Source of the DNA: a virus
UHGV virus genome: UHGV-0062059
Direction: 5' to 3' (one strand)
Length of the DNA: 39,873 nucleotides
Shown: piece by piece, positions 33,001-39,000 of the stretch
Layout of the letters: every line of letters starts with the position of its first letter
How positions within the stretch are numbered: the first letter of the stretch is position 1
Position numbers: made by a program

Positions 33001-36000
33001 ATCTGGTTCCGCGCGATGGCATGGTTTGCCTTGATATCAGCTATATGGGATTGCTCCATATTGCAATGGAGTCTGGTGTTATCTCATGGGGTCAGGCAAA
33101 ACTTGTTCATGCTAACGATACCTATGAGTCAAACGGGCTTGATAAAGCACCAACCCATAAATACAACGCCTTCGGTGATCGTGGTGATATCGTTGGCGTT
33201 TACTGCACAGTTAAGACGCCAGCAGGTGATTATCTAACGGAAGAGATGAGTCTGGCTGAAATTGAGGCTGTAAGGAAAACAAGCAAGGCAGCATTCAGCG
33301 ATAAAGGACCATGGGTAAATCACTGGAATGAGATGGCGCGAAAGACGGTCGTAAAGCGTGCAAGCAAGTATTGGCCTAAGGCATCACGTCTTGATAGTGC
33401 TATTCACGTACTAAACGAAGAAGAAGGTGTGTGGACTGAACCAGTTATGCCGCATAAATCAGAGGAAGATATCCGCGAAGATGAACGGAAACGCCAGCAG
33501 GAAATAACGGAAAAAGCACAACTTCTTTGTGATGAAATGGCTCAGGCTGAAAACATGGATGATTTGAAGAGATATTTTGCAGAAGCATATCGCCTGACAT
33601 CTGGAATGAAATTGCAGCAGAACGTACAAGCCATTTACATAGAATGCAAAGCGAAACTGGAGGTTGCCAGTGAGCAAACTATATGAAATTGCCAATGAAT
33701 ACGCAAAATTGATGGATTCAGATTTAGAACCAGAGATGATTGCTGACACAATAGAAGGCATGGAAGGAGAATTTACCGATAAAATAGAACAACTTCTTTC
33801 CGTCATTAAAAATGAATCTGGTTATGCCGAACGCCTCAAGGAAGAGGCAAAGTCACTGAATGAGCGAGCCGCAGTAATTCAAAATAAGATTGACAGCATC
33901 AAATCATATATAGCGTCATCGCTTGAAATGGTTGGCAAGAAAAATATTCGAGCAGGTATTCACCAGGTAACAATCCGCAAACCGTCAGAAATTGTAGAAA
34001 TAATCGACTCAAGCGCCCTTCCTCCTGAATACGTTGAGTTTGAAACGACAATTAAAGCCGACAAACTGGCAATCAAGCACCAACTAAAAGCAGGAATAAA
34101 TATTCCCGGTGCTCAACTCAAGGTTGGGAAACCTTCACTTCTTATCAAATAACGGTATCGCCTATGAAAAAGACTCCATGGGAGAAATGGGAAGTCGATT
34201 TCTTGCGCGAAGTATCGGCGACAATGCCAGTTGAAGTTATTGCTGAAAAACTGGAAAGGACTGAAAAAGCAGTTATGGCGAAAGCAACAAGGATTGGCGC
34301 TGACATTGTTAGCCGACTTCGTGGAAGACGCTGGACAAGAGCAGAAGTATCACTTTTCGGTAAGTTCTCCGCAGAAGAAATAGCAATTGCAACCTGCCGC
34401 TCAATTTATTCAGTAAGGGCTATGCGATACAAGCTAAAAAAACTCGATGAAGAAAGAGCAGGCATACGAATAAATTAACATGGAATAATTAACAATGAAG
34501 CTAAACATCGACCTCGGCAAATACGTTATCACCGGAACCAAACACGATCTGATTCTTAGCGAAAGAGGAATTATCAAAGAAGGCGAGAATGCAGGGAAAG
34601 AAACACTAAGTCGTATCGGTTATTACAGCAAGTTTGAGCATCTGGTTAAAGAGTTATGCAACCGTGAAATCCTGTTATCTCAGGCGCAGACGCTACAGGA
34701 TATTCAGCAGCATATCGAGACTTTAGGTGTGTCACTTAGCATGGCTATTGACCAGTTCGTTGAGAGTAAATCATGAGAGGACTTGCATACAATCCCGGCA
34801 TTCTTCCGGCAGAAATGATTATTCGCCAACGCGTAAAGCCAATGCCATCGAGAGAGGAATTACTTAAGCAAAACTCGTTTCCATCAGTGAATCAAAACAA
34901 ATATCTGAATGCGATGTGGCGGAGTGGGAAGAAATGAAACAAATGTCACTAATTGAGATGGATGGTTTTCTGAAAGGTAAATGCATCCCACGAGATTTAA
35001 AGGTTAACGAAACAAACGCTGAATATCTGGTGCGTAAATTTGCTGAAGCGGAGGCCAAGATTTCGGCTCTGTCCGAAGACCACCAGAAAGCGATTGAGTC
35101 AATTAAGCAGGCTGATGCAGCTGTTAAGTTGGCACACGAGAAGTTTTCGGCGCTGGCGGCGGAGAATGCGGCAATGCATGAAGCTATTGAAGCCGTTCGG
35201 AGTGTTGCGGATAACTCCAGTGGAATTGCCGGATGGCATTTGAATGGCGATATCGCTACATGGGAAGAGATTCTTCCTGAAATTAACGATATCGAAACCC
35301 AAGCCACCGACGCTTTCCTGGCTGAAATTGAACGCAAAGCAATCCGCAAGTTCATTAACAGCATTGAACACATCCTGCGTGACAAGTTGTCACCGTATGA
35401 CACCGAAGAGATGCTTGAGGCTATGCGTATTTTTCTGGAAGAACAGGGCGGTGAGCAAAAATGACAATCACAAAACAACGAGTAGGAAAAATCATATATC
35501 GCCATGAAATGGGACTGAACAGCGATGTCACTGCCGAAGAGGTTTATGACCTGGCTGTACTGGCGCTGAATTTATCAAATATCGCAAACCTGAAGCGATA
35601 CGAGCTTGATATGGATGGTTGTGACTCGTGCGGTCAGGATTGTGGCGCTGACATGACTGAAGATTCTGATGGCGATTATGTCCTGTTTGATGACGTGGTT
35701 AAGTTGTTTGAGCTTGATACATTCGAAAGCCCAGCAAAGGAGGCAACCAGTGATCAAAATTAACTATCATGCACTGCGTGAAGCGGCAGAGAAAGCCGGT
35801 GAAGATAAGTGGCAGGCTAAAAAAATAAATGGTGATTTTTTCGTTATTCGTCACGGTAGTTATACAAGACAGCATGGCTACACATCGTATCAACCCATTG
35901 CGGAGATTGATTGTAAGCCAGTCCGGGATTTTGTTGCCAAGGCTAATCCGGCTACCGTGCTTGCACTGCTGGATGAACGGGAAAGAAACCAGCAATACAT

Positions 36001-39000
36001 CAAACGCCGCGACCAGGAGAACGAGGATATTGCGCTAACGGTAGGGAAGCTGCGTGTTGAGCTTGAGGAGACAAAATCAAAACTCAACGAGCAGCGTGAG
36101 TATTACGAAGGTGTTATCTCGGATGGAAGTAATCGTATTGCTGAACTGGAGAAAAGCGAAGAGCAACTCATCAATGAGCGTGACCATGCTGAGTCTGCTT
36201 TAGCTGATATGTACTTTGCAGCAACCGGGGACAGACCGGAGTGGAGTAACTGGTTCGGCTTTTCAGATGCTGTCGATGCCGTGGTTGACAGAATTGCTGA
36301 TTTAGAAGCTAAACAGCCATCGCCAGTAGTACCGGAAGGACTGGTTAAAGCAGTGCGCTTCTATGAACAGGTTAAGCGTGAAAATCCGTCAGTCGAAACC
36401 GGAGCATGGAAAGACGCTATTGACTGGGTGCTCAAAGAGGCTTGCCAGGCTGTAAATATAGGCATCAAAGGAGAGTGATATGGCAACTTTGCAGGAATTA
36501 ATCGACCTGACGCCAGAACAGGAAAAAGCGTGGAATCGCCTTGTGAAGGCTGTAAAGGATTTCAGGGCAGCCGGAGGAAAGTTTTATAGCGTCCTGGACA
36601 CGCTGAGCGCATACAACGGCGAGCACGTTGCCAGCATTGATAACGATAAGGGCTACCACACTGCAAGCGTCTATATGCCTAGCATTGATGCGCCAGGGCT
36701 AACCAGTTGGGCTGATGATTGGCACGGCATCACGCTGAAAGATGGCGTTGAAGTGGATGAGGACTAACACATGACTACTTTTACCGACAAAGAACTGATT
36801 AAAGAAATCAGAGAGCGAATCGGCAGCCTGGACGTGCGAGACAATATTGAGCGCCTGGCTTATGAAATTGCTCTGGCATCGCTGGAAGCAGAGCCTGTTC
36901 TGTATCAGTCCTGCACTCGCCCCACCTGGAATAGCGGTGTTCCGTGGACGGAATGGAAAGAACGTAGTCGTGAGTGCTACGAAGACGATTTGCGTTTTAC
37001 AGACACGCCTGACCATGCCGGTTGGATATACAAATGTCGAAAACTATATACCACTCCGCCAGCGCCGATAGCGTTAGAGGCCATTGAAAACGCAATTGAA
37101 TACATTCGTAGTATCGCTTTTCACATCGATGAAGACGATTACCACGGCAAACATATTGCGTATTTCATGCGACAAGCATTGGCCTGGCTGGAAGGGCATT
37201 CATGCAGCGACGACAGACTGGGTAAAGCCGACAATCAACCAGTACGCGGCAACCAGGCTGCCGAATCCAATCGCGGTAATGAGTGGACCGGCAATCCTGA
37301 TATTGATAACGCAATCATCATGCTCGACCGCATAGATACGGCGGAAAGTTACGATGATGACCGTATTGAGGCTGTTAAGGCTGTTTTGCGTAGACTGGCA
37401 GGCAACTATCCGGATATTCCGGATGGTTTATCCACGGTATGCGCTGAGGCTTATCAGGTTGTAGGAGTTATGGCAGATGCGCTTGGTGTATTCGGTGATG
37501 CAGCAGTACAGAAAGTTCTGGATAACCTGTCACAGCAAAAACTTGTTCACAGAGATGTGCTGCCGTTCTCGCTTCCGGTGACTCCGGATGGTTGGATAAG
37601 CTGTAGTGAGCGAATGCCCCCTCAAGATGATTGGATTTTAATTTATTCAAAGCACGGCGAGTATATGGCAGGACAGGTACAAGGGGAATACGTGGAGTTG
37701 AGCGACGGCACTTTATCGTGGTTAGGGAACGCCTTGTTCTGGATGCCGCTACCAGAACCTCCACTTTGAAAGCGAAGCTTATACATATCTTTTACATCAG
37801 CAATCTATTGTTAATCTCCAATCAATGTTACGTTGTCATCTCACTCATGCTTTGGAGGTAGTGATATGTCTTGTCCAAAATGCGGTTCTGGAAATATTGC
37901 AAAAGAAAAAACAATGCGTGGATGGTCTGGTGATTATGTGTGCTGCGATTGCGGATACAACGACTCTAAAGACGCATTTGGAGAGCGTGGTAAAAACGAG
38001 TTTGTTAAAATTAATAAAGAACGCGAAGGCAACGAAAAAAGCTAATTTATTTATTCATATATGAAAACAATGTAACCAATATTCGAATTGAAGAACTGAA
38101 AGAACACCAAGCCGCCTGATGGCGGTTTTTTTATTGGAGACAAGAAATGTCAGATTTGGCTATGAAGGTTTTGAAATGGCAATCGACTGGCGATGTTGGC
38201 ATCAGTAGCGCAACTCTTGCCTCAATCGCATGTGGACTGAAAAAGAATATCTATGGTCATCACTTCGGCGCTCCCCATGACGCAGCCGATTTCAGACGAT
38301 GCGTTGCACTTGTTGAGCAGATTCCAGAAATCAGAGATTCATTCAACAAGGTTGCAAAGCGCGTTCCAGCATTCAAAGGAATCCTCAACGAATGGGATTC
38401 CCTCGTTGCTCTGTTGAAGTCTGAAATGAAGATACACGGAAACAAAGCACCAGAGACTTACAGAAGAATCAGCGAGCTACGCAAGGACTAACCATGGAAT
38501 CACACAGCCTCAAACCCAATGAGGCCTGTTCATTTCTCAAGATATCCAGACCTACCATTGCCGCATCAATGCGGCTTTTCTTGCGTGTAATTGCGGAGAC
38601 TTTGCGATGTACTTGACACTTCAGGAGTGGAACGCACGCCAGCGACGCCCAAGAAGCCTTGAAACAGTTCGTCGATGGGTACGCGAGTGCAGGATATTCC
38701 CTCCTCCGGTTAAGGATGGAAGAGAGTATCTGTTCCACGAATCAGCGGTAAAGGTTGACTTAAATCGACCAGTAACAGGTAGCCTTTTGAAGAGGATCAG
38801 AAATGGGAAGAAGGCGAAGTCATGAGCGCCGGGATTTACCCCCTAACCTTTATATAAGAAACAATGGATATTACTGCTACAGGGACCCAAGGACGGGTAA
38901 AGAGTTTGGATTAGGCCGAGACAGGAGGATAGCAATCACTGAAGCAATACAGGCCAACATTGAGTTATTTTCAGGACACAAACACAAGCCTCTGACAGCG

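Follow-up and report, generated by a model that had tools for sequence, protein, structure and literature searches.

In phages lambda and Phi24B, the exo–xis region is dispensable, is transcribed early from pL and modulates the choice between lysis and lysogeny (PMC10834534, PMC10789677), and a recombination-linked hotspot, of which phage HK446 provides an instance, holds anti-defence genes (bioRxiv 10.64898/2026.07.10.737580). In lambda and the Shiga toxin (Stx) phages the exo–xis region comprises orf60a, orf63, orf61, orf73, ea22, ea8.5 and orf55, and the ea region of P22 comprises abc1, abc2, orf56, eaE, orf45, eaF, eaD, eaI, eaA, eaG and eaC. Here we describe a block of ten genes, g1 to g10, at positions 34164–38491 of the virus genome UHGV-0062059, a stretch of 39,873 nucleotides (nt) that is referred to as the window. 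The block probably represents the non-essential accessory segment known as ‘ea’ in P22 and ‘exo–xis’ in lambda, here belonging to a P22-like prophage (Lederbergvirus) at attB-lambda and forming part of its leftward delayed-early operon: it lies between the recombination genes and xis–int, on the pL strand and downstream of an N-type antiterminator. An initial annotation had already described a dense gene block in the ea region, and both points hold, as the interval between the recombination genes and xis of this lambdoid, P22-like prophage is filled by ten consecutive + strand open reading frames (ORFs), with 217 of its 4328 nt non-coding (95% coding).

The genes of the block are as follows (aa, amino acids; HTH, helix-turn-helix; DBD, DNA-binding domain).

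34164–34478, + strand: g1, 104 aa, two tandem Myb/GcrA-DBD-like three-helix HTH repeats, Abc1-like by position and PHROG family
34495–34776, + strand: g2, 93 aa, DUF5405, phrog_154
34773–34937, + strand: g3, 54 aa, DUF2737
34934–35464, + strand: g4, 176 aa, EaE/Oad2 family, phrog_614
35461–35763, + strand: g5, 100 aa, acidic, phrog_3126
35750–36478, + strand: g6, 242 aa, GTG start, Ead/Ea22 family
36480–36767, + strand: g7, 95 aa, acidic, phrog_2821
36771–37769, + strand: g8, 332 aa, EaA-like, DUF551 at the C terminus
37866–38045, + strand: g9, 59 aa, CxxC...CxxC zinc ribbon, corresponding to P22 EaG
38147–38491, + strand: g10, 114 aa, basic, all-alpha, of a family without a Pfam model

Comparison with described phage regions

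The P22 ea region shares its position, strand and operon logic with the block. Counterparts are found for g3 (orf56, 74% identity), g4 (EaE, phrog_614), g6 (EaD, phrog_250), g8 (EaA, phrog_60 and DUF551) and g9 (EaG, 95% identity), and the segment spanning the 3′ part of eaA, eaG and the terminator is 97% identical in DNA. In contrast to P22, the block is without abc2, eaF, eaI, orf45 and eaC, whereas g2, g5, g7 and g10 have no P22 counterpart; it adjoins a RecT and Mu-Gam-like module where P22 has Erf/Arf/Abc, and it precedes a lambda-type xis–int, with only a scar of a P22-type xis left.

The exo–xis region that lambda and the Stx phages carry is, like the block, mosaic and carries an Ea22-family gene (58% identity over the N-terminal 135 aa). 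Lambda has the same terminator sequence upstream of xis, and the orf5–orf4 pair of VT2-Sakai corresponds to g7–g8. Unlike lambda, the block has no ea8.5 and retains orf55 as a 15-codon remnant, the C-terminal domain (CTD) of g6 differs from the solved lambda Ea22 CTD, and the orf60a/orf63/orf61/orf73 cassette has no match among g1–g10, either by tblastn against the lambda locus or by Pfam.

In the recombination-locus hotspot of HK446, the gene order abc2, gp29 (DUF5405), gp28 (DUF2737) and gp27 (Oad2) parallels g2–g3–g4, with the cassette directly following an anti-RecBCD gene; xis–int comes directly after the cassette in HK446, whereas six more genes follow in the block. The Rac prophage of Escherichia coli K-12 (recT–ralR(lar)–rcbA–xisR) resembles the block in having a zinc-ribbon gene, of ~60 aa, between the recombination genes and xis, the position taken here by g9; a search with Rfam found no RalA-like antisense RNA.

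Gene calls and junctions

The ten ORFs are real protein genes, not chance ORFs. All ten match PHROG families, with E values from 1e-22 to 1e-75, whereas the eight ORFs of 83–213 aa taken from alternative frames or the antisense strand match none, and substitutions relative to natural alleles are concentrated at third codon positions. The ratio of non-synonymous to synonymous polymorphism (pN/pS) against these alleles is 0.05–0.11 for g1, g2, g3, g7 and g10 (g2, 0.08; g3, 0.11 from 48 alleles; g7, 0.05) and 0.28–0.60 for g4, g5, g6, g8 and g9 (g5, 0.60). An independent gene caller, applied to the public contig NODE_276, returned the same genes and start choices, including the GTG of g6, and missed only the 54-aa g3. 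The start codon of g4 (ATG, 34934) lies in an ATGA overlap with the stop codon of g3; the GTG of g6 (35750) is preceded by GGAGG, and in both proteins, g6 and lambda Ea22, the homology starts at residue 3; the ATG of g9 (37866) is preceded by GGAGGT and yields a protein of 59 aa, the length of P22 EaG.

Stop/start overlaps or tiny gaps run throughout from g2 to g8. The serial ATGA overlaps reported in the initial annotation are present at three junctions (g2/g3, g3/g4 and g4/g5) but do not extend to the others, where g5/g6 overlap by 14 nt with a GTG start and the remaining genes are separated by gaps of 16 nt (g1/g2), 1 nt (g6/g7), 3 nt (g7/g8), 96 nt (g8/g9) and 101 nt (g9/g10).

The Oad2-like cassette and g1

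By BLASTP, the g4 protein aligns end to end with HK446 gp27 (Oad2), with 42% identity over residues 1–175 (E 8e-42); the first 34 residues are nearly identical, and the middle and C-terminal parts have diverged. The best family of both proteins is phrog_614, which also includes P22 EaE. The architecture of g4 comprises a conserved N-terminal segment of 45 aa, a heptad-repeat middle and a variable C-terminal part, with a heptad signal at residues 20–94 that stands above shuffles in a crude heptad score. Upstream of it, g2 matches PF17399 (DUF5405; 25.6 bits against a cutoff of 21.6) and phrog_154 (2.2e-31), the family also matched by its homologue HK446 gp29, and g3 matches PF10930 (DUF2737) at 2.1e-30 and is a homologue of HK446 gp28. 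The label ‘replication initiation protein’ attached to phrog_154 was dropped for g2 as an unsupported annotation transfer.

Oad2 rescues the toxicity of P2 OLD in recB cells and abolishes OLD defence; it binds the OLD tetramer and blocks activation of the OLD tRNase, and RecBCD inhibitors such as Gam set off OLD (bioRxiv 10.64898/2026.07.10.737580). The homology makes g4 a plausible candidate for inhibiting a defence nuclease of the OLD family. The pairing, in a P22-like coliphage, of an Oad2-like gene with a neighbouring Mu-Gam-like RecBCD antagonist fits the recent proposal that inhibitors of OLD-type sentinels are needed by phages that carry RecBCD inhibitors, and g4 is a natural variant with which the specificity of the Oad2–OLD interaction could be tested.

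Gene presence was counted in 80 IMG/VR loci anchored on g3. In 79 of them the gene after g3 begins with a 45-aa segment 84–100% identical to that of g4, and in 77 of these 79 it overlaps g3 by ATGA. The combination of DUF2737 and the Oad2 N terminus is thus nearly universal among the sampled relatives, whereas the rest of the protein varies, giving total lengths of 92–301 aa. The constant head and variable body of the g4-like proteins would be consistent with the shuffling of modules or with a binding surface that has diversified. As a speculation in which we place little confidence, the cassette with its hypervariable C-terminal part might encode diversifying inhibitors of different OLD-family nucleases.

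The g1 protein is basic (isoelectric point, pI, 10) and contains two copies of a W-x3-E...EIA...RS...V.R motif; its homologues contain the motif two or three times, and those with three copies show a Pfam match to sigma-70 region 4. Because of these tandem repeats, its initial description as a Myb-like repeat protein is correct. Both g1 and P22 Abc1 match phrog_323, over overlapping profile ranges (145–269 and 93–190), share a common fold type (HTH) and are encoded beside recombination or anti-RecBCD genes. In an accessory-gene screen, Abc1, an HTH protein, made several hosts more sensitive to phage and set off cell death that depended on P4. The homologue of g1 in phage Gally (locus 1565–1879) is annotated in its deposited record as ‘Anti-RecBCD protein 1 (Abc1-like)’.

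Genes g5 to g9

The g6 protein belongs to the Ead/Ea22 family by its N terminus and central helical region: PF13935 (Ead_Ea22) matches residues 3–134 (E 1e-32) and scores 114 bits, the cutoff being 27. Identity with lambda Ea22 is 58% over residues 3–137, where the similarity ends, and identity with P22 EaD is 41%. Its C-terminal 90 residues form a separate module (phrog_26213) that is not a CTD of the lambda type. A search of g6 against PDB chain sequences gave no match, and a lambda-type CTD would probably have produced one, because the Ea22 CTD, a dimeric alpha/beta domain, has been solved by nuclear magnetic resonance (PMC10834534). Lambda Ea22 is tetrameric and pro-lysogenic, as is Ea22 of P27, and its C-terminal domain is portable (PMC10834534). 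A weak match of g6 to a ‘RecBCD inhibitor’ PHROG family was dropped as coiled-coil similarity. Coiled-coil proteins had been predicted in the block, which is borne out by the heptad signal of g4 but not by g6, where the crude heptad score does not exceed shuffles and the prediction comes down to family membership.

The g8 protein carries a C-terminal DUF551 domain (PF04448, 39.1 bits against a cutoff of 22, E 1.4e-9, residues 274–331), confirming the DUF551-type protein recognised earlier. An alignment of 22 homologues resolves a variable leader (residues 1–34), an invariant core (35–212), an optional 56-aa insert (213–268) and the C-terminal DUF551 part (269–332). Both g8 and P22 EaA belong to phrog_60, and g8 has more than 7,000 database relatives. 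The gene at the EaA position in phage Louie (locus 3786–4574) is annotated in its deposited record as a ‘Lar-like restriction alleviation protein’. Related leaders open g5 (MTITKQRV..., 35461–35503) and g8 (MTTFTDKELIKEI..., 36771–36899), and both match phrog_3323; since homologues of g8 swap the leader among several versions, it appears to be a short exchangeable N-terminal module.

The acidic g7 protein matches phrog_2821 at 6.9e-66 and is found in 104 phage records, mostly of Stx-converting phages, at 95–100% identity. Its homologue in VT2-Sakai, orf5, precedes the 299-aa orf4 at the same position, so that a g7-type gene and an EaA-like gene form a conserved pair. The g5 protein (pI 4.05) matches phrog_3126 at 2e-57, has a conserved ‘LDMxGCDSxGxDCGADM’ motif and occurs in 63 phage records, all of them unnamed.

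Two zinc-ribbon proteins had been proposed for the block, of which g9 stands and g5 does not. In g9 the ligands are C3, C6, C26 and C29 (CPxCG ... CxxC). In g5 there are only three cysteines, C54, C57 and C61 (CxxCxxxC), close homologues have F or R in place of the middle one, and the zf-FCS profile reaches 13.1 bits against a cutoff of 22.4; a zinc ribbon was accordingly ruled out. Compared with RalR of Rac by BLASTP, g9 shows 30% identity over 54 aa (pairwise E 0.001), which suggests that it is weakly Lar/RalR-like.

In searches across the block, none of the ten proteins had a housekeeping homologue or an NCBIfam match above cutoff, PDB chain sequences gave nothing significant for g1, g6, g8, g9 and g10, and a literature search on P22 eaA, eaG and eaD returned nothing pertinent.

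The terminator and the recombination scar around g10

Two non-coding features flank g10.

38072–38134, + strand: predicted intrinsic terminator with an orf55 remnant (hairpin 38109–38128 followed by a T7 run)
38494–38575, + strand: recombination scar, P22-type xis remnant (first ~21 codons) and weak hairpin

The terminator that the initial annotation had placed before the last gene is present, its hairpin having a folding energy of –13.2 kcal/mol (z –2.7). It coincides with the terminator annotated in P22 at 23398–23418. Positions 38072–38131 of the window are 100% identical over 60 nt to lambda 29106–29165, which contains the final 15 codons of orf55 and has the hairpin spanning the orf55 stop codon; in lambda, xis comes directly next. 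The corresponding 3′ remnant of orf55 in the window (VTNIRIEELKEHQAA*, 15 codons, 38072–38119) is 100% identical to lambda and is also seen downstream of eaG in P22. We take this terminator upstream of xis to be lambda tL3, a name that could not be confirmed; searches for it yielded no coordinates.

A hairpin and T-run occupy this position in all 40 g10-bearing loci examined, which argues that the arrangement of terminator and g10 is conserved and not accidental. The stems are of two unrelated kinds. One, CCGCC/GGCGG, is seen in 29 loci and the other, CTCGC/GCGAG, in 11; these numbers include eight loci whose stem has a wobble or single mismatch. Both versions are followed by the same (T)GGAGACAAGAA-ATG. 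In lambdoid phages g10 always stands directly behind the conserved terminator and just before xis. Only 12 nt separate the T-run from the g10 start codon, too short a stretch for a promoter, and no promoter-like site for g10 was detected in the 100 nt upstream. The terminator can be read as a gate that would limit g10–xis–int to antiterminated transcription.

Identity with lambda resumes at 38576, so g10 and its flanks (38132–38575) appear as a module inserted between the terminator and the xis leader. Directly after g10 lies a remnant of a P22/SfX-type xis (38494–38556, MESHSLKPNEACSFLKISRPT...); positions 38485–38556 are 90% identical to the eaC-stop/xis-start segment of P22. A weak hairpin (38560–38575) is located at the exact point at which lambda-type DNA resumes. 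Judged from these identities, 38494–38575 is the scar of an earlier replacement of xis–int, the integration module.

The g10 family

The g10 protein is basic (pI 9.4), with a confident model of seven helices in an all-alpha arrangement, a fold for which the PDB offers no counterpart. A word-indexed search recovered 63 clusters, from enterobacterial sources only, whereas a full HMMER scan with a g10 profile recovered at least 2,836 clusters (50% identity) at E ≤ 1e-3, of which 635 reached E ≤ 1e-10. Across 57 members, which share ~33% identity, residues W11, S20, P43, D45, D48, R51, C52 and W83 are invariant. No member matches Pfam, and the 57-member profile found nothing in the PDB or Pfam; in a viral structure library the matches are to uncharacterised proteins only, including one of Clavibacter phage CN1A (template modelling score, TM, 0.80). 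Homologues occur in phages of Enterobacteriaceae, Vibrio, Klebsiella, Arthrobacter and Clavibacter and in Mu-like phages of Haemophilus; in a Mu-like Haemophilus phage, a Klebsiella siphovirus and an Arthrobacter phage they lie in early or accessory gene clusters.

Pfam scans of 20 longer homologues revealed a single fusion, to a CCA-adding enzyme. In this protein of 558 aa, a g10-like domain lies C-terminal to a CCA-adding tRNA nucleotidyltransferase, the latter with PolyA_pol head, RNA-binding and HD domains. The fusion hints at tRNA biology for the family, and it may also be an annotation artefact produced by a fused gene call. Many other database proteins join part of g10 to fragments of Ea22, Kil, Erf or dATP/dGTP pyrophosphohydrolase; these chimeras seem to have arisen through deletions inside the region as prophages decayed.

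We put forward only as a speculation, to which we attach little confidence, that g10 represents a large, unrecognised family of phage early proteins and a new host-takeover or counter-defence factor acting on a conserved host target. Its family is very large and stands outside the domain databases, and the high-confidence model and invariant residues make it a tractable target in the search for a new phage–host interaction.

Mosaicism

The combination of genes in the block is mosaic and rare, although this kind of region is well known. None of 50,697 phage records and none of 5,426 complete E. coli genomes contains at least 80% of the block in one place, while parts of it are present in 4,171 of these genomes. 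The whole gene set is found in none of the 80 g3-anchored loci, in which full-length genes were counted as follows: g1, 3; g2, 3; g4, 7; g5, 15; g6, 1; g7, 1; g8, 2; g9, 12; and g10, 38. These counts are lower bounds, because some loci are cut by contig ends. Short islands of 85–98% identity within otherwise unrelated DNA, such as 35734–35796 (start of the Ea22-type gene), 35947–36161 (Ea22 helical core) and 37574–37618 (DUF551 boundary), probably mark exchange joints between modules.

As a whole the block adds little: the region is already known from lambda, P22 and Stx phages, and this is one more mosaic instance of it. Of most use in it are the Oad2-like g4, with a Gam-like gene as its neighbour, and the family of g10, which is large and uncharacterised.

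Function of the block and alternative explanations

As an ea/exo–xis accessory segment, the block would have its transcription confined to the early period that follows infection or induction and carried out by antiterminated RNA polymerase, with g2 to g8 translated by coupling and with g10–xis–int, behind the terminator, dependent on antitermination. Its products would be small modulators of the host and of the developmental choice of the phage. Among them, g1 would act as an Abc1-like regulator that binds DNA, g6 as a pro-lysogenic, oligomeric factor of the Ea22 type and g9 as a Lar/RalR-like zinc-ribbon protein, and g4 would bind and block an OLD-family abortive-infection nuclease that is otherwise set off by the phage’s own RecBCD-antagonising Gam-like protein.

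Several observations weigh against parts of this scheme. Coupling is read from the geometry of the junctions, and the Shine–Dalgarno sequences of g1 and g2 are weak. A homologue of Oad2 from HK75, 54% identical, fails to inhibit P2 OLD (bioRxiv 10.64898/2026.07.10.737580), so that Oad2 activity cannot be transferred to g4 at 42% identity; g4 may have a target other than P2 OLD, or none. BLASTP gave no alignment between g1 and P22 Abc1, and the ‘Anti-RecBCD protein 1’ annotation of the Gally homologue is therefore supported at the level of the PHROG family only. The g9 protein falls below the cutoffs of the Lar profiles (PF14354, 23.4 bits, 7e-5, against 28.6; TIGR03655, 14.9 against 39.6). A PADLOC scan of the ten proteins yielded no match beyond two negligible coiled-coil hits, only g4 has a homologue with demonstrated anti-defence activity, and six of the ten genes (g2, g3, g5, g7, g8 and g10) are without a functional lead.

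The initial annotation had regarded the genes as unknown and the region as one that often holds host-takeover or anti-defence functions. The genes are not orphans, since most belong to named ea families, and the functional suggestion is upheld in part, by the homology of g4 to Oad2, the PHROG family shared by g1 and Abc1 and, weakly, by g9, whereas Ea22, the relative of g6, is a developmental modulator and not an anti-defence protein. An anti-defence role is plausible for g4 and weaker for g1 and g9. A more far-reaching proposal, that the block is primarily a counter-defence island in which most or all of the ten proteins inhibit host immunity, with OLD-family nucleases and restriction enzymes among the targets, and the mosaicism reflects an arms race, is possible, but we are inclined to doubt it. 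Beyond the same three genes, of which the Abc1 relationship brings in broad counter-defence phenotypes, it draws on the conserved N terminus and hypervariable remainder of the g4-type gene behind g3, on raised pN/pS (0.4–0.6) for g4, g5, g6 and g8, on the strongly acidic character of g5, g7 and g8 and on the adjoining RecBCD antagonist gene; it sits poorly with the PADLOC result, with anti-defence annotation in PHROG being limited to the weak coiled-coil match of g6, with the action of the best-studied relative, Ea22, on the lysogeny decision, and with the absence of peptide strings of g1, g3, g4, g7, g9 and g10 from the supplements of two accessory-gene screens. It is unlikely, conversely, that the block mainly encodes modulators of development or host physiology (lysis versus lysogeny, host replication and stress) that lack specific immune targets. 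The Ea22 family membership of g6, the correspondence of g7–g8 to a gene pair of the VT2-Sakai exo–xis region, the published exo–xis effects in lambda and Phi24B and the HTH nature of g1, which could make it a regulator, all point that way; the conserved lambda cassette of orf60a, orf63, orf61 and orf73 is nevertheless missing among the ten genes, and Oad2, the homologue of g4, has a direct immune target.

Two further explanations concern parts of the block. Expression of g10, or of other block genes, as a moron from the repressed prophage, for lysogenic conversion or superinfection exclusion and with the terminator as insulation, would account for the terminator standing immediately upstream of g10 in every locus examined, in two hairpin versions, and for g10 being the most widespread gene of the block and member of a very large family. 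It is very improbable, given the 12-nt spacing and the missing promoter-like site; homologues of g10 also occur in the early regions of virulent and Mu-like phages, and the same terminator directly precedes xis in lambda, which is why it reads as an operon-internal gate and not as a moron boundary. Hardly any credence is due to the idea that some of the ORFs are non-functional recombination relics: the orf55 and xis remnants are clear scars, and databases contain many deletion–fusion products in which g10 is joined to pieces of Ea22, Kil and Erf, but each of the ten ORFs belongs to a PHROG family and has intact homologues in many phages, a pN/pS below 1 and substitutions biased to third positions, whereas the control ORFs in other frames have no family.

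Genomic setting

The features that surround the block are listed below.

30001–30651, + strand: CI-like repressor
30967–31266, + strand: N-like antiterminator, phrog_271
31278–31901, + strand: Nmad5-domain protein, 207 aa, directly after the N-like antiterminator
32110–32168, + strand: lambda cIII thermoregulator RNA element, Rfam RF01804, 88.5 bits, E 4.7e-21
between the Nmad5-domain gene and RecT, + strand: cIII, then kil
32775–33686, + strand: RecT, phrog_148
ending at 34152, + strand: Mu-Gam-like end-protection protein, phrog_253
after the block, + strand: xis, then int, lambda-type

The genes for the repressor, the N-like antiterminator, RecT and the Mu-Gam-like protein thus lie upstream of the block on the same strand. 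The Xis protein is 98.6% identical to lambda Xis and the xis–int DNA 97.9% identical to lambda, whereas the structural half of the window is nearest to the P22-like coliphages vB_EcoP-720R6, phiv205-1 and CUS-3. A public metagenome contig, NODE_276 of ENA ERZ1304298, encodes an identical g8 protein within the same series of gene lengths; on it (locus 9238–12922), int is followed by a ybhC-like pectinesterase-family gene and an aconitase-family gene, which on the E. coli map is the attB-lambda neighbourhood. The gene order and these neighbours beyond int indicate a Lederbergvirus-type prophage with a lambda integration module, in which the + strand is the pL direction; a P22-like phage thus occupies the lambda attachment site by means of a lambda int–xis module.

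Promoter-like sites are scarce, with only 2 in 5.3 kb where shuffles predict 8.8, a scarcity that accords with the interior of a long operon. The RF01804 element is located upstream of a cIII-like ORF. The 207-aa protein that follows the antiterminator matches PF18757 (Nmad5, nucleotide-modification-associated), according to precomputed matches on the public contig, and also phrog_1965.

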